Part shown: one piece after another, positions 3,276 through 26,540 of the stretch
Layout of the letters: each line of letters starts with the position of its first letter
Numbering within the stretch: the first letter of the stretch is position 1
Made by a program: the position numbers and the translations under genes
Notes under the pieces: model-generated
Database searches by the model: none
What the model was told of the DNA's origin: nothing
What the model saw: the letters and a program-made list of their open reading frames with translations, nothing else
NCBI GenBank assembly: GCA_041486955.1
Contig: JBGPML010000003.1
Span: 1-35,587, forward strand
Length of the DNA stretch: 35,587 nt
Reading direction: 5' to 3'
Source: Patescibacteria group bacterium
Lineage (GTDB): Bacteria > Patescibacteriota > UBA1384 > 2-12-FULL-50-11 > DASWYB01

Positions 3276-3980
3276 ATGTTGACCGAGGATCAAACTAAAG
3301 AAATATCTCAAGCGATCGACATTGAATTTAAAGACGATGATCTACTCCGCCAGGTCTTTATTCATCGTTCTTATCTCAATGAGAACCCTGGCAGTAAACT
3401 TGGCCATAACGAACGTCTCGAATTTCTTGGGGATGCGGTTCTAGAATTAATTGTGACTGAGTTCCTTTATAAAAACTATCCTAATCCAGAAGGTGAACTG
3501 ACCAACTGGCGAAGCGCATTAGTCCGTGGTCAACATTTAGCTGAAGTTGCCGGTCAGCTTGGCTTGGGTCAATGGTTAATGTTATCTCGTGGAGAGGCAA
3601 AATCCGGCGGTAAAACCCGCCAAATCCTCTTAGCCAACATGTTTGAAGCCCTGCTAGGCGCTATCTATCTCGATTCCGGGTTAGAAGTGACTAGGAAATT
3701 TATTGATGAACATATCACCGTTCGCTTGCCAGACATTCTTTCAAAAGAGCTTCATATTGATGCCAAAAGTAAATTCCAAGAGCTTACCCAAGCTCGGGTC
3801 GGAATTACTCCGCACTATTCCGTAACCCGGGAAGAGGGACCAGATCATGCTAAAGAATTTACCGTAGCGGTGTATCTCGGTAACAAACTGGTTGCAGAAG
3901 CTAAAGGGTCATCTAAACAAACCGCAGAACAAGCGGCTGCCTCTTTGGCGGTGCGCAACTTTATCGAAGCGAACGCTTAA
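3276..3980 (+). CDS. rnc: Ribonuclease III
   Basis: HNERLEFLGDAVL signature, FEALLGAIYLDSG, C-terminal dsRBD (GPDHAKEF..AEQAAA). Confidence 0.98.
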   Translation: MLTEDQTKEISQAIDIEFKDDDLLRQVFIHRSYLNENPGSKLGHNERLEFLGDAVLELIVTEFLYKNYPNPEGELTNWRSALVRGQHLAEVAGQLGLGQWLMLSRGEAKSGGKTRQILLANMFEALLGAIYLDSGLEVTRKFIDEHITVRLPDILSKELHIDAKSKFQELTQARVGITPHYSVTREEGPDHAKEFTVAVYLGNKLVAEAKGSSKQTAEQAAASLAVRNFIEANA

Positions 3981-3985
3981 CGCTT

Positions 3986-4148
3986 GAACCTATCTTATAA
4001 ATCAAACCTTAAGCTGCAAACGAGAATATTAGAGCTGCACGCCACGAATCACTCGTCAAAATAGTGTAAACTATTCTTCCTCGTAAGTTCGGGGCGTTCG
4101 CTTATAATCTGCTCGTTTTCGCTATCAGGCAGATTTTAAGACAGGTTC
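3986..4148. repeat. Palindromic intergenic element, subfamily B, copy B1
   Basis: Terminal arms gaacctatcttataaatc / gattttaagacaggttc; core aaaatag-tgtaaa-ctattct (4058-4077); gctgca..tcgtcaa..tag..cta..cttcct..ttcgg..ttcgct shared with the reverse complements of B2 and B3. Confidence 0.85.
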
Positions 4149-4568
4149 CTAGTCACTCGAAGCAGATGCCTCAGCCCAACCTGGACCAGCTGATGCTTGG
4201 GCATGTGCGTCTCCGCTTTCCGTTTCGGCAGATACCATATCTTGGTATTCATAATGTTTGACTTCATATGTGTGCGTCGTGTAAGTTATTTCTTCTATAG
4301 CTTGCGGTGATTTATTATCAGTATCATTTGAATGGCCATCATCTTTTGATGATCCATCTTTGCTTAGCTCTATTGTTGGTAACTGTGTCGGTGTTACTTC
4401 TGGGGTTGGAGTAAGAATAGCTACAGGGAGCGAGGAAGTCGGAGTAGGTGTTATTACCACTGCCCTTCGACGCTTAACCCAGCCAAAAATGAGGTATAAG
4501 ACTAGTCCAAGAACAATAAAACCAATTACGAGGCGGATAATAAGAGTTAATAGATCGGATCGTACCAT
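4149..4568 (-). CDS. Hypothetical single-pass membrane protein with a Pro/Thr-rich linker
   Basis: N-terminal hydrophobic helix followed by KRRR, TPTPT repeats and an acidic tail. Confidence 0.75.
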   Translation of the reverse strand: MVRSDLLTLIIRLVIGFIVLGLVLYLIFGWVKRRRAVVITPTPTSSLPVAILTPTPEVTPTQLPTIELSKDGSSKDDGHSNDTDNKSPQAIEEITYTTHTYEVKHYEYQDMVSAETESGDAHAQASAGPGWAEASASSD

Positions 4569-18232: not shown

Positions 18233-18619
18233 CTAAGTTTTGTCAGCGGATTTCTTACGGCCTGAACCAACGGTCATTTTCTTACCTCGTTTTATACGAG
18301 CGTTGGTCTTTGTTCGTTGACCACGAACCGGTAGTCCCGCAGCATGCCGTATACCGCGATACGTACCAATATCTTTTAATCGCTTGATATTTCGATTCAC
18401 TACCAATCGAGCGTCACTCTCAACCGTGAGATTCTTGTCTATATAAGTCCGAAGTTTTTCAACTTCACCTTCCGTTAAATCCTTGGTTTTAGGATTATTG
18501 GTGATATGGCATTCCCGAACAATCTGTCCAGCGGTCGTAATACCAATGCCATAAATATCGGTCAATGCTGTGGTAATTCGCTTATCGTTATCTAAATTAA
18601 TTCCAGCAATACGAATCAT
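18233..18619 (-). CDS. rpsM: 30S ribosomal protein S13
   Basis: MIRIAGINL, IYGIG, YRGIRH..LPVRGQRTKTNAR; true start 18619. Confidence 0.98.
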   Translation of the reverse strand: MIRIAGINLDNDKRITTALTDIYGIGITTAGQIVRECHITNNPKTKDLTEGEVEKLRTYIDKNLTVESDARLVVNRNIKRLKDIGTYRGIRHAAGLPVRGQRTKTNARIKRGKKMTVGSGRKKSADKT

Positions 18620-18783
18620 AGGGCTCCCCGAGAAACTTGTTTTCGAGATGGAACTGACCATGTTTGGAGCGAAAAGTCTGAAGCGTAAGGAGGCATAGTT
18701 GTCACTATGTCGACGAGCGATGAGGACTTTACAGCCCAAAGTGGGCTGTTACTGTCGAAATTCAAGTTTTTCTGGGAGTCCAT
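18616..18783 (-). CDS. Putative 55-aa ORF encoded by repeat B2 (MDSQKNLNFDSNSPLWAVK...RGAL)
   Basis: ATG 1 nt after the rpmJ stop with AAGGA upstream; TGA overlaps the rpsM ATG (ATGA); same frame as the ORF in B3. Confidence 0.45.
   Translation of the reverse strand: MDSQKNLNFDSNSPLWAVKSSSLVDIVTTMPPYASDFSLQTWSVPSRKQVSRGAL
18621..18781. repeat. Palindromic intergenic element, subfamily B, copy B2
   Basis: Arms gggctccc.gagaaacttg / caagtttttc.gggagtcc; core GA-ggcatagt-tgtc-actatgtc-GA; 23-nt block gaccatgtttggagcgaaaagtc identical to B3. Confidence 0.92.
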
Positions 18784-18784
18784 A

Positions 18785-18901
18785 CTATCCTTGTCGTTGC
18801 TTATGACGGGGATTCTTTTTACAAAGTACACGAACAACACCATCCCGACGAATGATCTGGCATGTTTCACACATTCTTTTAACTGATGGTCGTACTTTCA
18901 T
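18785..18901 (-). CDS. rpmJ: 50S ribosomal protein L36 (not in the ORF track)
   Basis: Manual translation: [38 protein letters not shown]. Confidence 0.98.
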
Positions 18902-18907
18902 AATAAT

Positions 18908-19144
18908 TTAACTCAAGCGTGCTATGATTCTTCCCTTACTCAAATCGTAAAGAGAAAAACGCAATTTAACTCGATCACCGAGTAAGATTCGAATATGATT
19001 TTTACGAATTTTACCGGAAATAAAACCGAGAACTTCTTTATCGTTCTCGAGTTTAACGCGAAAAACGGCGTTGGGGAGAGAGTCAGTTACGACGCCTTGT
19101 GCTTCTACAAATTCTTTCTCCATATTACCCACTGATTTTACCAT
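18908..19144 (-). CDS. infA: Translation initiation factor IF-1 (start may be 19123)
   Basis: [38 protein letters not shown]. Confidence 0.98.
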
Positions 19145-19146
19145 AT

Positions 19147-19926
19147 CTACTTCTGTTGGTCAACAGAAAAACCAAGGGGAAATGGCACGAGAATTTCAGG
19201 GTCATTTTCCCGAATTATGACGGTTGTTTCAAACTGAGCAGATAGGCTACCATCCTTGGTTCGGATAGTCCAGCCATCGTCGTCGAGTGTGACCCGCCAA
19301 TCGCCGGCGGTTAGCATCGGTTCAAGGGCAAGGGTCATATTATCAACCAAGGCTGTTGTGTCTTTCGTCCGGTAATTCGGTACGTTGGGAGATTCTTGCA
19401 AGTTACGTCCAATACCATGGCCAGTAAGATCGCGAATGATTCCAAAGTCTCCTTGAGAGCGAACAAAATCTTCAACGGCCGCACCTATATCTTGAACTTG
19501 ATTGCCAGCTATTGCGACTTCAACCGCGTGCTTCAACGCTTCTTGAGTGGTTCTTAATAATTTTTGAGCCTCGTTTGAGATTGAACCGATTGGTTTAGCA
19601 AAAGCGGCATCGGTATGGTACCCCTCCCATTCCACTCCAACATCTATGCCTATTATATCGCCCTCCTTTACAATATATGCATTCGGAATACCGTGAACTA
19701 CGACATCATTCGGCGATAAACAGGACGCTGCGGGATAACCATTAAAACCAAGAAATGACGGATTTCCCCCGGCCTCAATAATGAGCTTATGAATAAAGGC
19801 ATCAATTTCTTTTAATGTTTTACCAGGCGCGACAAAATCATTGACACTCTGCAATACATTGTCCAAAATCTTTCCGCCCTCTCGCATGGCGTCGAGTTCT
19901 TTAGGTGTTTTTGGTCGGATGGTCAT
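19147..19926 (-). CDS. map: Methionine aminopeptidase type I
   Basis: VVHGIP, DVGV..GYHTDAA, GHGIG, ALEPM, SAQFETT; start MTIRPK at 19926. Confidence 0.97.
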
Positions 19927-20470
19927 ACGCAATAATCTTTTTTTGAATGGCTTGATGAAGGTTTTCAATCGTATAGTCGCCGTTAATCGTGATGTAATGA
20001 ATCCCATGCTGTTGAATTGCTGTCAGAGTTTTATCAGCTTGGCTGCGATACAAGGCAATCCGATCCTCGACGACTGAGCTCCGATCATCGTTTCGATTTT
20101 GCTCCTTCTCAGTCAGGCGTTTTTCGGCTCGGTTTTTTATCAGTTGATCGGCAAGTTCAAGAATAATAACATAAAAGTTCGATTGACCCCATAATTTAAT
20201 AGCATAGTCTACCTGTGCGGCCGTTCGTAAAGCCCCATCAACGACGCAATTGTCTGGGTGGTTTTGGTGTAATTTCTGGTACACTTTTTCAACTTGGTTA
20301 TCCGGAATGAGGGCTCCACGCTTCAATAATTCGGCAATTTCAGGATCCGACTGGGCAATACGGCGAAATTGATCGCCAAAACTTATGAAAGGTAAATGAA
20401 GATCATTGGCCAGTAATTTAGCTTGAGTATCTTTTCCGCTCGCCGGGGGGCCAAGAAAAAAATAGATCAC
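19901..20470 (-). CDS. adk: Adenylate kinase (short LID)
   Basis: GPPASGKDTQA P-loop, GALIPD, DGALRT..Q, RNDD. Confidence 0.93.
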   Translation of the reverse strand: MIYFFLGPPASGKDTQAKLLANDLHLPFISFGDQFRRIAQSDPEIAELLKRGALIPDNQVEKVYQKLHQNHPDNCVVDGALRTAAQVDYAIKLWGQSNFYVIILELADQLIKNRAEKRLTEKEQNRNDDRSSVVEDRIALYRSQADKTLTAIQQHGIHYITINGDYTIENLHQAIQKKIIAYDHPTKNT

Positions 20471-21162
20471 GGCGTAGCCTTGGTTAAGGTTTTAATTGTA
20501 AGCTTTTTAATGGACCATAATCCGGAGGACTGTTTTTCCATCGAAATCGTTACGATTCGAGCATCGTCAGTGGTTGATAATGTAACATCCGTTTCAGTGG
20601 CGTTGGATTGGCTATATGGTGTGTCTGACGCCAAGCTGTAGATGCCTTTGGCGTCGGCTTGAGCGGCCGTAACCGCGTCACTATAAATGCTTGTCGATCC
20701 GCTGGTGATTTTTTGTTGTTCTTTTTTTAACCGGTTCTGATTGATAATAAATAAAATTGTGTAGGTATCACTCGAAACATCGTCAGGGATAATTATCTTT
20801 TGTCCCGCCAATACTTTATTGGGGTCACCAATTCCGTTTAATTTTGCTAACTCGCTTACTGTAATAGTACGACCGGATATTAAGCTTAATAAACTACCAC
20901 CCTCTGGAATTTTCTGCTGATCATTCGGTTGAGATAGGGCTTGGTTCTCTGTAAACGTCTGAGTTGCCGAGGCGGAAGCAGTTGGAGTTGGTGTCCCACT
21001 CGTTTCGGGAGTGGGGGCAGCCGAGCTTGAATTTGAAGGTGTTGGTGTTGGTTTCGAGTCAGGTGTAACTTCTCCCATTTGACTTGCATATAAATAAGCG
21101 GCACCAGCAATAGCTAATGTTGCGATCAGACCGAGAAATATTGTGAGAGCTTTAGAATTCAT
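20467..21162 (-). CDS. Membrane-anchored LysM-domain protein
   Basis: N-terminal TM, Pro/Thr/Ser linker, LysM-like GGSLLSLI..TVSELAKLNGIGDPNKVLAGQKIIIP. Confidence 0.85.
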   Translation of the reverse strand: MNSKALTIFLGLIATLAIAGAAYLYASQMGEVTPDSKPTPTPSNSSSAAPTPETSGTPTPTASASATQTFTENQALSQPNDQQKIPEGGSLLSLISGRTITVSELAKLNGIGDPNKVLAGQKIIIPDDVSSDTYTILFIINQNRLKKEQQKITSGSTSIYSDAVTAAQADAKGIYSLASDTPYSQSNATETDVTLSTTDDARIVTISMEKQSSGLWSIKKLTIKTLTKATP

Positions 21163-21208
21163 ACTGGAGTAACCCCCCTAATTATAGCGTATTAACGCTA
21201 CAAAGTGA

Positions 21209-22492
21209 TTAGGATTGGTTATAGGCATCATATGTTCGCATAATATATTGCGATTGAATTTGCCTGGCAGTTTCCAGGATGACTGATATCACAATCAACA
21301 AGCTTGTCCCTCGCAAAAGAATACTCTGACTTGGGAATTGATGCTCAAGAATCGCCGGTAGGATAGCAATAAGAGCTAAAAAGAGTGCGCCGAAGAGCGT
21401 AAGTCGCGTTAAGACTTTGTACACATAGAGCTCGGTCTCTTTACCCGGACGAACGCCGGGAATATATCCACCTTGCTTTTGGAGATTTTCTGCAACTCTG
21501 TCGGGCTTAAAAATAATGAACGTATAAAAGAATGTGAAAGCAAAGACTAATAAGAAATAGCTCATATTATACGTTATAGTATTGGGTTGAAATGTCTGAA
21601 TCAACCAAGTTGCAAAATGAGCTATCCAGGGAGTCCGAGCTTGGTGAAAAAATTGACCAATGAAAGTTGGCATCGTCAAAAGAGCGATGGCGAAAATAAT
21701 AGGAACAACACCGGCTGCGTTGATTTTGATTGGTAAGTGACTGGCCACACTGCCAAAGCTTCCGCCAGCCCTCACTCGCCTGGCATAGGCAACCGGGACC
21801 AATCGTTTTGCTTCATTAATAATAATCACGAAGACAATTGAGAGAAATGTAATAACTAAAATAGCGAGAATTGCGGTGTATGAATTATTAGATTGGGCGG
21901 CGGTAACAAGACTGGTAATATGGCCGGGAATTGCGCCAAGAATACCAAGCGTAATTAAAAGTGACATACCATTCCCAATACCATTTTCTGTCACAATTTC
22001 ACCCATCCACATAAGAAACATTGACCCAGCTGCCATCATAAGCAGTGTTCCAAGTAAGGCTACGGGTGTCCAGGTGGTAATAATGGCATTCTGTTTCAAC
22101 AGTAAGAGCACGCTATAGGCTTGAATGATAGCTAAAGGTAAGGTTAATAATCGTGTATATTGATTGATTTTGCGTTGACCGAAATCACCTTCTTTTTGTA
22201 ATTCTTCTAAAGAAGGAATAACTATACCTAACAGTTGCATAATAATCGATGCCGTAATGTACGGACCTACTCCCATAGTGATAATTGAAAAGTTTTCTAA
22301 TCCCCCACCAGAAAAAATATTCAAAAATCCGAGGAATTCATTTTGTTGAAATAACTGTTTTAAGGCGCTGGTATGGATCAATGGCAAAGGAATGAAAATC
22401 AAGATTCGAGCGACTACTAAAATTAAGAGTGTGACTAAGACTCGTTTTCGTAAATCCTTGAGTTGCCAGAATTGAATCAGAGGCTGAAACAT
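21209..22492 (-). CDS. secY: Preprotein translocase SecY
   Basis: MGVGPYITASIIMQLL, GIGNGMSL, AGVVPIIFA, GGYIPGVRPG. Confidence 0.98.
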   Translation of the reverse strand: MFQPLIQFWQLKDLRKRVLVTLLILVVARILIFIPLPLIHTSALKQLFQQNEFLGFLNIFSGGGLENFSIITMGVGPYITASIIMQLLGIVIPSLEELQKEGDFGQRKINQYTRLLTLPLAIIQAYSVLLLLKQNAIITTWTPVALLGTLLMMAAGSMFLMWMGEIVTENGIGNGMSLLITLGILGAIPGHITSLVTAAQSNNSYTAILAILVITFLSIVFVIIINEAKRLVPVAYARRVRAGGSFGSVASHLPIKINAAGVVPIIFAIALLTMPTFIGQFFHQARTPWIAHFATWLIQTFQPNTITYNMSYFLLVFAFTFFYTFIIFKPDRVAENLQKQGGYIPGVRPGKETELYVYKVLTRLTLFGALFLALIAILPAILEHQFPSQSILLRGTSLLIVISVILETARQIQSQYIMRTYDAYNQS

Positions 22493-22561
22493 GATTGGGC
22501 ACCTTTGTGGCCGCTTATATGTCGGTCGTAATAGTAGGGCGACCGACTAAAACGAATGGTT

Positions 22562-22963
22562 TTATTGCTTGGATCGGGATTGAGCAACGTCTTCAAAAGT
22601 TACGGTGACGGTTAGTTTATCGCTTCCTAAAATCTTGATCGGTCGATCGATCGAAGTAATAAGATGTTTTTCAAACAAGCTTGTCGGAGAAACGGTTTCG
22701 CCGTTGGTGTAATGTGTATTAATCAAACTTCGTTGAATGATAACTGGTGCAGGGACATGATGCTTAAATCCGCGTGCTTTAGGCAGCCGCAAAATAAGCG
22801 GTGTTTGGCCACCTTCAAATTTTCGTGGAATATTATAGCCACTACGTGATTTTTGACCTTTGGTTCCTCGTCCTGCGGTTTTACCTTGTCCAGCAGAAAT
22901 ACCTCGTCCCACACGCGATTTTCTATGTCGTAAAGAATGCGAATCAAGTTGGTGTAATTGCAT
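22562..22963 (-). CDS. rplO: 50S ribosomal protein L15
   Basis: [29 protein letters not shown]. Confidence 0.97.
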
Positions 22964-22969
22964 AATAAT

Positions 22970-23584
22970 CTACTCGGCTATCCCTTGATTTTCTGTTTTT
23001 TCATTTCGTTTTTTTTGGCCTAAGTAGCGTGGCGCAACATGTTTAATATCTTTGAGACTGGCTAATGCGCCGATCGTTGCATAAGCATTATTGAGCTTAT
23101 TTGTGGTTCGGGTCAAGCATTTACCTACCACGTTTTCGATTCCGGCTAACTCGAGAATAGGACGAACCGAGCCGCCAGCAATGACTGAAGTTCCGACACC
23201 AGCCGGTTTTAGCATAACTTTTGCTGTGTCGAATTTATAAGTTATCTCATGTGGAATGGTATGTCGAACTATTGGGACGGTGACAATACGCTTCTTAGCA
23301 TTATAGGTTGCCTTAGCTACCGCAGAAGCGATTTCATTTGACTTACCTATGCCTAAGCCGACACTTCCCTTGCGATCCCCTACTACAACAAGGGCTCGGA
23401 ATCGCAATCTCCGACCACCTTTTTGGGTTCGGCTGACCCTATCGACAGTAATGACACGATCTTCAAGAGGGGCTGACTCGTTTTCGGTAACTTGATTTGC
23501 CGAAGAATCAGCAGTTTTCGCATTCGGTTGGTTGACGGGCGGAGTTTGAGGTATTGTAGTTGTCTTTTCTTCTGCTTTAGCCAT
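22970..23584 (-). CDS. rpsE: 30S ribosomal protein S5
   Basis: RVSRTQKGGRRLRFRALVVVGD, PAGVGTSVIAGG; start MAKAEE at 23584. Confidence 0.98.
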   Translation of the reverse strand: MAKAEEKTTTIPQTPPVNQPNAKTADSSANQVTENESAPLEDRVITVDRVSRTQKGGRRLRFRALVVVGDRKGSVGLGIGKSNEIASAVAKATYNAKKRIVTVPIVRHTIPHEITYKFDTAKVMLKPAGVGTSVIAGGSVRPILELAGIENVVGKCLTRTTNKLNNAYATIGALASLKDIKHVAPRYLGQKKRNEKTENQGIAE

Positions 23585-23594
23585 ATGTCTCCTA

Positions 23595-23939
23595 TTATAC
23601 CGTAATACCTGCATCACGTAATGTGTCGGCTACAGCTTTGATTTGACCGTGGTATTTAAAACCACCGCGATCAAATACAACTCGTGTAATGTTTTTTGCT
23701 TGAAGCAACTTCGTAAATTCGGTGGCGACTAATTTGGCTCGTTCAATTCCAGACCCTGAAGTCTTAAGTCCGGAATCTGATAAGCCGATGAGTGTTTTAC
23801 CGGTAGTATCATCGATAACTTGAACATATAAATGCTGATTGCCGCGATACACACTCAACCGTGGTCGCTGCTCAGTACCAGACATTTTTGTACGAATGCG
23901 TTTGTGACGGATAGTCCGTAATAATGACTGTTTCTGCAT
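23595..23939 (-). CDS. rplR: 50S ribosomal protein L18
   Basis: GTEQRPRLSVYR, VVFDRGGFKYHG. Confidence 0.98.
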   Translation of the reverse strand: MQKQSLLRTIRHKRIRTKMSGTEQRPRLSVYRGNQHLYVQVIDDTTGKTLIGLSDSGLKTSGSGIERAKLVATEFTKLLQAKNITRVVFDRGGFKYHGQIKAVADTLRDAGITV

Positions 23940-23941
23940 GA

Positions 23942-24487
23942 TTATTTTCCAGCTTTCGCGGCCTTACCAGCCTTGCGTCGAACAAGCTCTCCAGCATAAC
24001 GAATCCCTTTACCCTTATAAGGTTCTGGTTTTCGTACCTCTCGAATGTTTGCCGCGACCTGACCAACGAGTTGTTTATCAATCCCTGAAACGGTAATAAG
24101 GGCATTTTTTTCCACGTTAAATGAAATGCCTTGTGGAGCAGGGATCACAACGGGGTGGGTAAAACCAACCTGAAGGGTTAAGCTCGTGCCATCAGATTGC
24201 GCACGATAGCCAATCCCCTGCATTTCCAGCTTTTTGGAAAAGCCTGCACTGACACCAGTAATTGCGTTTGAAATAAGCATGCGGTTCAAGCCGTGAAGTG
24301 AGCGGGCAATTCGGTCATTTCCATGTCGTGTGACAGCAATTGTGCCATCATTAATTTCAGCGGTAATCCGAGGGCTCACCGTCACGCTCAACTCACCTTT
24401 CGGCCCAGTGACATGTAAAACAGAGTCGGTGTAGTCTACACTGACGCCATCAGGGATTGAAATAAGCTGTGAGCCAATTCGTGACAT
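23942..24487 (-). CDS. rplF: 50S ribosomal protein L6
   Basis: MSRIG, GPKGEL, RKPEPYKGKGIRY. Confidence 0.98.
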   Translation of the reverse strand: MSRIGSQLISIPDGVSVDYTDSVLHVTGPKGELSVTVSPRITAEINDGTIAVTRHGNDRIARSLHGLNRMLISNAITGVSAGFSKKLEMQGIGYRAQSDGTSLTLQVGFTHPVVIPAPQGISFNVEKNALITVSGIDKQLVGQVAANIREVRKPEPYKGKGIRYAGELVRRKAGKAAKAGK

Positions 24488-24496
24488 ACTATTTCC

Positions 24497-24886
24497 TTAC
24501 CACACCGTGGCAATAATTTCTCCACCGATTCCGCGTTTTTGAGCGTCATTACCACTCATAATACCTTGAGGTGTTGATACTATGGCTAAACCATGGCCGC
24601 TTAACGGTCGGGGTATTTGTACAACGCCACTATAACGACGGGCTCCGGGCTTAGAAACGCGTTTTAAATGACTCACCGCGGGCACTTTACCTTCGTACCG
24701 AAGCGTTATTTCTAGTGTGTCGGAAGGCTTACCAGATTTTCGGGTTACTGAATTAATATAGCCATTGTCTTTCAAGACATTGGCAATCCGTTCTTTCAGA
24801 TGAGATGCCGGAATAATAACTGTTTCATGATGAACAGCTTGGGCATTTTTGATGCGAATAAACATATCGGCAATGGGGTCGCTCAT
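24497..24886 (-). CDS. rpsH: 30S ribosomal protein S8
   Basis: MSDPIADMFIRIKNA, VSKPGARRY, GGEII. Confidence 0.98.
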   Translation of the reverse strand: MSDPIADMFIRIKNAQAVHHETVIIPASHLKERIANVLKDNGYINSVTRKSGKPSDTLEITLRYEGKVPAVSHLKRVSKPGARRYSGVVQIPRPLSGHGLAIVSTPQGIMSGNDAQKRGIGGEIIATVW

Positions 24887-24893
24887 AATACTC

Positions 24894-25079
24894 CTACCAG
24901 GAAGCTTTCGTAATACCAGGGATTTCCCCACGTGAAGCCATTTCGCGAAAACAGATACGACAGACACCAAACGCGCGAAGATAACCACGCGGGCGACCAC
25001 AGATCTGACATCGGCGAACGATACGTGTCGAGAATTTAGGTTTACGTCCAGCTTTGATAATTAAACTTTTCTTTGCCAT
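24894..25079 (-). CDS. rpsN: 30S ribosomal protein S14 (zinc type Z)
   Basis: [28 protein letters not shown]. Confidence 0.98.
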
Positions 25080-25087
25080 ACGACTCC

Positions 25088-25639
25088 TTATGCACTCTCT
25101 GTTTTCGTAAAGGGAAATCCAAGGTGTTTCAACAACACCTGAGCCTGACGATCATCGGGACTACTCGTTACAATGGTAACCTGCATACCCCAGGTTCGGT
25201 CATTCGATTGAAATGGAATTTCTGGAAAGACTGTTTGTTCGCGTAAGCCAAAGGAAAAATTACCATGGCCGTCGAAACCTTTTACGGCAATACCTTGAAA
25301 ATCTCGTAGTCGTGGGAAAACGTAGGTAATCAATCGATCGAGAAAGTCATACATCCGCTTGCCGCGTAACGTAATCCGAAAGCCGACCAAATCATTCTCG
25401 CGTAGCTTAAAGCCAGCAATAGCTTTTTTGGCTTTGGTTACAACGGGTTTTTGACCAGTAATGAGACTAAGCGATTCTGATACACTCTTTTGGAGCGATT
25501 CATTGCCCTTTAATTCACCCCAACCAACATTAACCACAATTTTTTCGATCCGAGGCACAGCTAAAACATTCCGAATCGCCAATTCTTGGCCGAGTTGCGG
25601 AATAATCGTTGTTCGAAATGTTTCATGAAGAGATGACAT
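25088..25639 (-). CDS. rplE: 50S ribosomal protein L5
   Basis: [31 protein letters not shown]; start at 25639. Confidence 0.98.
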
Positions 25640-25646
25640 AAGAATC

Positions 25647-25952
25647 CTATAACGTTTTCTGGCCCAATCGACTGGTACGAAGCTTGTCTTTATTCTCAAG
25701 CGTGTAACCAATTCGGGTTGGTTTTTTAGAATCGGCATCAAGAAGCATGACATTACTGGCATGAATTGCCCGGAATAACTCGACCACGCCGCCTGAAGGA
25801 TTCTTGGCTGATGGTTTAAGGTGTTTCTTATATTTATTTACACCAGTAACAGCGACACGGTTAAGCAACGGCAGAACGGCTTCTATTGTGCCGGTTTTGC
25901 CGCGGTCTTTCCCTGCAATGATGAGAACGGTGTCACCTTTTTTGAGTTTCAT
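25647..25952 (-). CDS. rplX: 50S ribosomal protein L24 (alternative in-frame ATG at 25964)
   Basis: MKLKKGDTVLIIAGKDRGKTG, IHASNV. Confidence 0.98.
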   Translation of the reverse strand: MKLKKGDTVLIIAGKDRGKTGTIEAVLPLLNRVAVTGVNKYKKHLKPSAKNPSGGVVELFRAIHASNVMLLDADSKKPTRIGYTLENKDKLRTSRLGQKTL

Positions 25953-25955
25953 TTT

Positions 25956-26118
25956 TGAACCCATTATAAAACTCGCTTTCTTGACGAAACAGACCATGTT
26001 TGGAGCGAAAAGTCCGAATCATAAGGAAGCATAGCGGATGCTACGTTGACGAATAATGCGGGCTTTGCAGCCCAAAGTGGACTGTTGCAGTCGAAATTGG
26101 AGTTTTGTAGTGGGTTCA
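25956..26118. repeat. Palindromic intergenic element, subfamily B, copy B3
   Basis: 19-bp arms tgaacccattataaaactc / gagttttgtagtgggttca (2 G-T); core GA-agcatagc-ggat-gctacgtt-GA; homologous to B2. Confidence 0.92.
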
Positions 26119-26119
26119 T
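25964..26119 (-). CDS. Putative 51-aa ORF encoded by repeat B3 (MNPLQNSNFDCNSPLWAAK...RKRVL)
   Basis: AAGGA-5 nt-ATG(26119); TAA overlaps an ATG (TAATG) in frame with rplX. Confidence 0.45.
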   Translation of the reverse strand: MNPLQNSNFDCNSPLWAAKPALFVNVASAMLPYDSDFSLQTWSVSSRKRVL

Positions 26120-26139
26120 TTAGTTCCTTGATCTTATTT

Positions 26140-26168
26140 AGTATACCTGTTAATGACTATTTTGTCGA
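26140..26168 (-). promoter_or_regulatory. Candidate internal promoter between rplN and rplX
   Basis: TCGACA-17 nt-TATACT. Confidence 0.55.
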
Positions 26169-26171
26169 GGT

Positions 26172-26540
26172 TTAGAGAACTTCTGGCGCAAGCGATACAA
26201 TTTCGCGAAATCCGGAGTCACGAATCTCTCGAGCGATCGGACCAAATACGCGTGTGCCAACAGGTTTATTATCGTCAGAAATAACGACCACGGCATTATC
26301 GTCAAACCGAATCACGCTACCATCCGGACGACGGTGCGGCTTGGTGGTACGGACGATAAGGGCCTTAACAACGCTCTTCTTGGCGGTCGTGCCATGCGGG
26401 ATAGCCTTTTTTACCGTTCCAACAATCACATCACCAAGCGTGGCCGCATTATGTTTGCCACCTTTGATGGTTTGAATATGCATGATTTCGCGTGCACCAC
26501 TATTGTCGGCCACGACGTATTTCGTTCTTGGCTGCGTCAT
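26172..26540 (-). CDS. rplN: 50S ribosomal protein L14
   Basis: [35 protein letters not shown]; start 26540. Confidence 0.98.

Follow-up and report, generated by a model that had tools for sequence, protein, structure and literature searches.

The window analysed in this study is the whole stretch of 35,587 nt at positions 1 to 35,587 of contig JBGPML010000003.1 (GenBank assembly GCA_041486955.1), from a Patescibacteria group bacterium with a genome of ~840 kb (85 contigs, assembly 92% complete), referred to below as G000. Its minus strand carries a ribosomal-protein operon, in which rpmJ, rpsM, rplN and rplX were verified by Pfam. Two junctions of this operon, rpmJ-rpsM and rplN-rplX, are each occupied by a hairpin element of ~161 nt, which we identify with high confidence, from the sequence features set out below, as a miniature inverted-repeat transposable element (MITE) of an insertion sequence (IS) of the IS5 type. 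Each of the two copies (B2 and B3, respectively) is spanned by an open reading frame (ORF) that ends at or close to the start of the next gene. A first-pass annotation of this DNA had proposed that ribosomes translate through these bridge ORFs, unwind the hairpin and reinitiate on the essential gene downstream. The features at the two junctions are listed below.

18785-18901, minus strand: rpmJ (L36; Pfam PF00444, 7.9e-22), with its TAG stop at 18787-18785
18782-18784, minus strand: left copy of a putative target-site duplication TAT, as read from the sequence; the right copy (18618-18620) overlaps the rpsM ATG
18621-18781, minus strand: MITE copy B2, a ~161-nt hairpin (covariance model R1, 127.9 bits; also an nhmmer match), in sense orientation on the operon mRNA strand
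18616-18783, minus strand: B2 relay ORF of 55 codons; its ATG (18783-18781) consists of AT from the flank and the first G of the element
18233-18619, minus strand: rpsM (S13; Pfam PF00416, 1.8e-30), with its ATG at 18619-18617
26172-26540, minus strand: rplN (L14; Pfam PF00238, 5.5e-45, residues 1-122), with its stop 52 nt before the start of the B3 ORF
25957-26117, minus strand: MITE copy B3, the same element (covariance model R1, 142.8 bits), in sense orientation on the mRNA strand
25964-26119, minus strand: B3 relay ORF of 51 codons; ATG at 26119, with AAGGA 6 nt upstream
25647-25952, minus strand: rplX (L24; Pfam PF17136 plus KOW), with an alternative in-frame ATG at 25964

The B2 ORF begins one nucleotide past the rpmJ stop (a single T lies between), is preceded by CAAGGA, and closes with a TGA (18618-18616) that overlaps the rpsM ATG (18619-18617) as ATGA. 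The start codon, the AAGGA, the 55 codons and the overlap described in the first-pass annotation are all present, and the peptide agrees letter for letter. At B3, the 51 codons and the overlap of the TAA (25966-25964) with an ATG (25964-25962) in frame with rplX, as TAATG, were also recovered, but the conserved start of rplX is more likely to lie elsewhere. It is probably ATG 25952, since the N-terminus MKLKKGD is as in G002, the nearest informative relative for this start, and the KOW domain falls at residues 5-33; the stop of the B3 ORF lies 11 nt upstream of this codon. The two copies align without gaps (77% identity over 151 nt), and hence both ORFs use the same frame of the element, as had been claimed. 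The caveat attached to that claim holds as well: the sense strand of the element is poor in stop codons. The predicted folds have energies of -44.2 kcal/mol (z -2.1) for B2 and -49.3 kcal/mol (z -5.9) for B3.

The insertion sites could be reconstructed by comparison with relatives. The rpsM gene was matched at full length in 26 of 26 genomes. Both genes could be located in 24 of the 25 relatives searched; 18 of these 24 have only 1-13 nt and no insert between the rpmJ stop and the rpsM ATG, a contrast of filled and empty sites that is a between-species comparison only. The junction in G000 reads TAG-TAT-element-TAT-G, and the rpsM start codon shares letters with the 3-nt duplication TAT. With G as the first base of B2, the upstream TAT turns into T-ATG, and the bridge ORF thus takes over the original ribosome-binding site of rpsM. 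At the other junction, the rplN-rplX spacer of G002 contains the same AACAGGTATA motif as that of G000, and this spacer closes immediately on ATGAAACTC. Judged from this comparison, the AAGGA before the B3 ORF is evidently the former Shine-Dalgarno (SD) sequence of rplX; B3 sits between it and the rplX ATG, and no SD remains between the element and that ATG. An AT/G junction that creates a start codon was found in only 9 of 111 copies, yet it is present in both B2 and B3. Both copies are unchanged in contigs of four other sediment runs, except for one low-depth G>A at 18743, and no empty-site joint at B2 or B3 was found in the contigs of these four runs, which hold this organism. As a separate observation, the rplN-rplX spacer itself (26120-26171 of the window; locus L152 of G002) measures ~52-58 nt vs 0-10 nt in most other relatives, and the shared AACAGGTATA(A/C)TAA within it resembles a -10 promoter box inside the operon.

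Iterated nhmmer searches recovered 29 copies of the element in G000 (~161 nt each), all of which lie between ORFs or overlap ORF ends only, according to a long-ORF map. The copies begin with GAACTCAT and end with ATGAGTTC, which form terminal inverted repeats (TIRs); TIRs, including the subfamily variants GAGCC and AGACC, were seen in 120 copies. The whole element folds as one long hairpin. Mean identity among 28 full copies is only 44%, with compensatory changes in 32 of 34 consensus pairs. Of the 111 well-bounded copies, 23 are flanked by identical 3-nt sequences (permuted mean 6.2, maximum 13). The duplications are mostly TTA (12) and TAA (5), with TAT at B2, and the TTA and TAA forms presumably fit the TNA duplications of the IS1031 group. 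Moreover, one related genome (G027) contains an IS of ~919 bp whose ends are identical over ~20 nt to the MITE copies of that genome, and whose ORFs match HTH_Tnp_4 (1.9e-16) and DDE_Tnp_4 (1.3e-12)/DDE_Tnp_1. It is on the inverted repeats, the 3-nt duplications and this IS that the assignment to an IS5-type insertion sequence is based. The element in G000 differs from such IS5-family elements in that it carries no transposase and no such IS was found in that genome. The shared termini in G027 concern the AGACC subfamily; for the GAAC subfamily, an autonomous IS was sought in G000 (92% complete) with PF01609, PF13586 and PF13359, with no match. Among 61 related genomes, transposase was detected only in G027, plus a weak match in G028, which has no MITE match. 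Most copies look like orphans.

The distribution of the element is patchy. A covariance model built from the G000 copies matched in 19 of the 61 genomes, with 1-29 copies each, and a motif scan with one genome per species returned 101 stretches, of which 75 of the 80 listed were verified by the model. Nearly all are titled Patescibacteria (Berkelbacteria, Saccharibacteria, Kerfeldbacteria, Magasanikbacteria, Uhrbacteria, Vogelbacteria and others). Three model-verified copies (L233, L260 and L261) are situated on contigs titled Gammaproteobacteria or Terriglobales, by mis-binning or possibly by transfer beyond Patescibacteria. The Rfam database gave no match at gathering score over the window, and around B3 only a chance-level match to sR35 (E 0.72).

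A further feature of the element is an asymmetric core within an internal loop of the hairpin, placed at ~18690-18725 in B2 and ~26025-26060 in B3, in which UUCGUCAAC precedes and GCUAUGCCUCCUCAC..UUUCGC follows a short apical stem. Across Patescibacteria lineages, this core has been kept better than the arms, and better even than the terminal repeats. It reads as an anti-SD-like CCUCC on one strand and as GGAGG on the other; such a core should be dispensable for a plain MITE.

We propose the following course of events. B2 and B3 are old insertions of a non-autonomous IS5-type transposon, the whole ~161 nt of which forms one long hairpin. B2 hit the rpsM start codon, where the TAT duplication and the G of the element rebuilt an ATG behind the old ribosome-binding site of rpsM, which lies at the end of rpmJ. 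From there, the stop-poor sense frame stays open for 55 codons and closes in ATGA on the true rpsM ATG. B3 hit between the SD (AAGGA) and the ATG of rplX, so that the old SD would now drive the 51-codon ORF. Ribosomes on the bridge ORFs would melt the hairpin, which may otherwise be a double-stranded substrate of RNase III; in the fold of B2, the only SD-like sequence before rpsM (GGGGAG) is paired in the predicted stem. Termination at the end of the bridge ORF would leave the ribosomes on the downstream start or beside it, where they would reinitiate. The sequence comparisons establish what the element is, where the two copies inserted, how their ORFs lie, that such ORFs are enriched in tight junctions and that bridge ORFs occur in the ribosomal operons of relatives; translation, unwinding and reinitiation are what we infer for both copies; with ribosomes passing through in this manner, the insertion would therefore be nearly neutral for an essential, translationally coupled operon, and the bridge peptide itself would probably be irrelevant.

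The first-pass annotation had described the two bridge ORFs as homologous. This homology carries no weight as evidence: both ORFs are one frame of one repeat, which is open in about half of the copies whatever their context, and the likeness of the B2 and B3 peptides is a by-product of that common frame. The relation between the frame and its surroundings, a check suggested in the first-pass annotation, was examined across the family, on 120 copies and then on 183 non-redundant copies with rewritten flank rules. The flank calls skip genes under 60 aa, which places B2 and B3 outside the class of tight junctions, defined as those with both co-directional neighbours within 25 nt, a threshold picked after seeing the data. 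In tight sense junctions, a spanning ORF with a start codon was found in 8 of 12 copies, compared with 6 of 31 in loose junctions (Fisher 0.0085) and 27 of 140 on all other sense strands (Fisher 0.00095), a ~3.5-fold enrichment. Relative to the upstream stop, the starts of these ORFs fall at -4 to +19 nt; relative to the downstream start, their stops fall at -15 to +13 nt. The copy between dnaN and recF is an example.

The second line of evidence comes from inserts of other repeat families in the ribosomal operons of relatives. The rplC-to-rplQ operon was compared in G000 and 20 relatives. An insert was scored where a spacer exceeded the median by at least 55 nt, and a junction was called bridged when an ORF covered at least 80% of the spacer and ended -6 to +30 nt from the downstream start, with 500 shuffles per junction as the control. 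By these definitions, 32 of 46 inserted junctions are bridged vs 3.27 expected from the shuffles, and on the opposite strand 10 of the 46 attain 80% coverage. Removal of the three rows of G000 and of two rows with N-runs leaves 29 of 41. The bridge ORFs start -11 to +20 nt from the upstream stop, their stops overlap the next start mostly as TGATG or ATGA, and 16 of 31 bridged spacers fold with a z of -2 or lower. The operon of G004 is the most densely occupied, with 11 inserted junctions, all bridged. Since none of the inserts in the relatives' operons compared here is the G000 MITE, the bridging pattern is independent of the intrinsic frame of that MITE. At least the inserts of the G004 type belong to a separate repeat, AT-rich and dispersed (29 and 28 BLAST matches in two genomes). 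Outside the operon, it shows an ORF cover of at least 80% on 8 of 16 mRNA strands vs 2 of 16 opposite strands, and on none of 12 strands at divergent or convergent sites.

This AT-rich hairpin family fills many ribosomal-operon junctions of relatives, at loci L157 (G004), L154, L158, L159, L160, L169 and L170. The inserts of G004 measure 100-162 nt; their ORFs open at the upstream stop or next to it and close as TGATG or ATGA on the next gene. The last codons of the bridge ORFs in this family often read as an in-frame SD (..GG..).

Several observations weigh against a relay function. Over all copies, an open sense frame is seen in 27 of 43 mRNA-strand copies between co-directional genes vs 65 of 140 other sense strands (p 0.08), and a spanning ORF with a start codon is present in 14 of the 43 vs 27 of 140 elsewhere (p 0.09). 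The difference between contexts for which the first-pass annotation had suggested a test is thus not significant overall, and what was found of it is the enrichment in tight sense junctions, with the limit on their definition given above. Nor is the relay ORF constant in operon copies: to the 14 of 43 in sense orientation correspond 3 of 44 antisense copies on mRNA strands. The orientation on mRNA is random (43 sense, 44 antisense), and there is therefore no visible selection against non-translatable antisense copies. Ten antisense copies occupy tight junctions, none of them with a spanning ORF, although in one case an ORF covers 87% of the spacer. The B3 ORF fits its site more loosely than that of B2, with gaps of 52 nt to rplN upstream and 11 nt to rplX downstream. 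As regards the relatives, rows from genomes that are related do not count as independent: a single insert is shared by L161 and L162, and the six inserts at rpmJ-rpsM may go back to one event. Finally, three further MITE copies were found in or at ribosomal operons. The third of these lies in the rplC 5' leader and has no ORF. The other two are antisense intra-operon copies:

L054, 1501-1662 (G046), antisense: MITE copy between rpsE and rplO
L250, 6844-7025, antisense: MITE copy between rplO and secY

Neither has a single bridge ORF, and in this respect the expectation that copies inside operons carry such ORFs failed. In both, the upstream gene runs into the element (47 or 25 nt) and a second ORF covers most of the rest. 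As copies without a spanning ORF persist in tight junctions and in ribosomal operons, a relay ORF is not a requirement for the survival of the element in operons. It may be added that in these two copies the stop of rpsE or rplO lies inside the element, so that the MITE supplies the last residues of the protein.

These findings might also be accommodated by another explanation, in which the bridge ORFs are a neutral by-product of a stop-poor sense strand and of landing at a start codon, with rpsM and rplX initiated independently and the ORFs idle. The frame is indeed open in those 65 of 140 sense strands off operon mRNA, among them copies without any start codon, antisense copies are tolerated in tight junctions with no ORF, and the B2 ATG is the mechanical outcome of the TAT duplication and a terminal G. 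The random orientation and the two antisense copies in ribosomal operons point the same way. What such an account does not predict is the enrichment of start-to-end ORFs in tight sense junctions, the bridging of unrelated inserts in ribosomal operons far more often than in shuffled sequence (32 of 46 vs 3.27), and the coincidence of an AT/G junction in both B2 and B3. It also has to find a way of initiating rplX, which has no SD between the element and the ATG, and rpsM, whose SD-like GGGGAG is sequestered in a predicted stem. We regard a neutral origin of this kind as possible but somewhat doubtful. Alternatively, the hairpin might be the functional part, as an RNA or DNA element (an RNase III processing or stability site, an attenuator or a protein-binding site), with the ORF secondary. 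The compensatory changes in 32 of 34 pairs are in line with this, as are the core UUCGUCAAC / GCUAUGCCUCCUCAC..UUUCGC, kept across many Patescibacteria lineages while the arms vary, the RNase III encoded in the genome, and the fact that most element-bearing genomes among the 61 have no detectable transposase. However, the random orientation to transcription argues against a strand-specific role in RNA, there is no Rfam match, and covariation in a palindrome may also arise at the DNA level. The patchy occurrence in 19 of 61 genomes (1-29 copies), the TIRs and the target duplications fit a mobile element. A primary role of the hairpin is, in our opinion, unlikely.

The idea that the bridge ORFs form a functional small protein family, or the seed of new small proteins as the first-pass annotation had suggested, fares worse. 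The ratio of nonsynonymous to synonymous differences (pN/pS) between B2 and B3 is lowest in the ORF frame (0.42 vs 0.76 and 0.93 in the other sense frames), and 15 pairs of copies from genome G059 behave similarly (0.53 vs 0.92 and 0.90). In this check, which was proposed with the original claim, one antisense frame of B2 and B3 likewise gives 0.42, and the differences between the two copies are spread evenly across codon positions (15, 11 and 18). In addition, about half of the copies have the frame interrupted, a start codon is absent from many of the open ones, copy lengths differ by non-multiples of three, and a Pfam search with the B2 and B3 peptides gave no match at E up to 1. We consider a function of the peptides very improbable. 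Taken against these alternatives, we think it rather probable, on the strength of the sequence comparisons, that the ORFs of B2 and B3 act as a relay to the next essential gene. The relay proposed in the first-pass annotation is supported in part, by the tight sense junctions (8 of 12), by the bridged inserts of the relatives (29 of 41) and by the mycobacterial precedent discussed below, and it is weakened by the antisense copies in tight junctions (0 of 10) and by the two unbridged operon copies.

The closest parallel is provided by MIRUs (interspersed repetitive units of mycobacteria), which, as summarised in a 2025 review on translational coupling (PMC12548453, citing Supply et al. 1997), insert at start codons and carry an ORF coupled to the gene at a spacing of -4, minimising harm. 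B2 resembles them as a repeat at a start codon inside an operon, the ORF of which is coupled downstream as ATGA. Its TAT duplication overlaps the rpsM ATG, and at rplX the SD and the ATG are separated by B3. The -4 overlap of stop and start is seen at B2; at B3 it exists only if ATG 25964 is used, the alternative being a gap of 11 nt. MIRUs are direct, often tandem units of 46-101 bp, with neither a long hairpin nor TIRs. In contrast, the element described here is a single palindromic MITE of 161 nt with TIRs and a 3-nt duplication, which occurs in both orientations and at every kind of intergenic site, and the likeness is one of described geometry.

Another parallel is found in the Rickettsia palindromic elements (RPEs), mobile palindromes of ~150 bp that keep one frame open, according to a 2024 review on MITEs (PMC10969869, citing Ogata et al. 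2000). The MITE is also palindromic, with one open frame, and could be translated through in the same way. RPEs are situated in frame inside protein genes, whereas B2 and B3 are separate mini-cistrons between genes. In-frame insertion inside genes is not seen among the 29 copies of G000 (on the long-ORF map), and of the MITE copies studied here only the two antisense operon copies (G046 and L250) extend the C-terminus of a neighbour. ERIC elements of enterobacteria and Correia-type MITEs of Neisseria are likewise imperfect palindromes located in transcribed intergenic regions, which fold in mRNA, have a short A/T-rich target duplication, in some cases carry ORFs, and have known effects on mRNA stability and processing. 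They differ from the present MITE in sequence family and in host phylum. The passages of PMC10969869 devoted to MITEs with ORFs name RPE, ERIC, BOX and QMITE1 and make no mention of relay coupling. Our literature search (supplements excluded) returned no report from the candidate phyla radiation in which a MITE or hairpin repeat carries relay ORFs. A relay logic of the MIRU type is known; what appears to be new is that it would be carried by a long-hairpin MITE of the IS5 type, in a phylum where it is apparently common.

The genomes of this group are reduced and gene-dense and leave hardly any room between genes; in their ribosomal operons, one gene after another is joined to the next by overlapping stop and start codons. 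Such operons nevertheless absorb hairpin repeats of 100-190 nt, in one relative as many as 11 in a single operon, all of them bridged by ORFs. This suggests a general rule by which selfish DNA may become harmless in coupled operons, and the apparent convergence with the mycobacterial MIRUs would extend the same logic to palindromic transposons. For genome annotation, the mini-ORFs should not be taken for protein families, and start codons beside such elements are easily miscalled. The system may also serve as a natural test bed for models of translational coupling based on unfolding and reinitiation.

A wider proposal, which we put forward only tentatively, is that several unrelated hairpin-repeat families colonise the coupled operons of Patescibacteria, chiefly the ribosomal ones, as "translationally transparent" mini-cistrons, and that these relay cistrons are more than tolerated, in that they tie the folding of the hairpin to translation. 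If this were true, each mini-cistron would open at the upstream stop or just beside it, be read through its hairpin, and close, in many cases with an in-frame SD and a stop placed on the downstream ATG. Through the folding of long RNase III-sensitive hairpins, both the stability of operon segments and their stoichiometry would then depend on ongoing translation, and the CCUCC/GGAGG core conserved in the MITE would play a part in this control.

The window contains a third copy of the MITE, outside the ribosomal operon:

3986-4148, plus strand: MITE copy B1 (covariance model R1, 118.5 bits), between convergent genes
3276-3980, plus strand: rnc, encoding RNase III (Pfam Ribonucleas_3_3, 3.4e-39, plus dsrm), immediately left of B1

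The right-hand neighbour of B1 (4149-4568) is on the minus strand, and the three sense frames of the copy contain 3, 2 and 3 stops, none of them being open. The first-pass annotation had contrasted this copy with B2 and B3, on the grounds that no coupling is needed between convergent genes. The convergent site and the stop were both confirmed, but the stop is not diagnostic, as the frame is open in 10 of 24 copies at convergent sites. B1 abuts the 3' end of rnc, and long hairpin transcripts of such elements would be natural substrates of RNase III.

Small nested insertions were noticed in five copies of G000 (C10_11631, C35_6440, C4_7209, C2_5439 and C1_7032). They are of two types, a unit of ~24 nt (cccccatgggatttcc..ggtca) and a 12-nt GC hairpin at the apex (tccgccggctgg), and suggest a modular or secondarily invaded structure.

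A further arrangement was observed at dnaX, the start codon of which is apparently the terminal ATG of the ATGAGTTC end of another G000 copy (MSSNSLYRKWRPQ..., Pfam DNA_pol3_delta2). This copy is located at 4350-4510 of contig C8 (locus L034, 1501-1661, minus strand). Its ORF comprises 52 codons from an ATG at the edge of the element (55 from an upstream in-frame ATG) and ends as ATGA on the dnaX start; judging by this geometry, it may act like a coupled upstream ORF.

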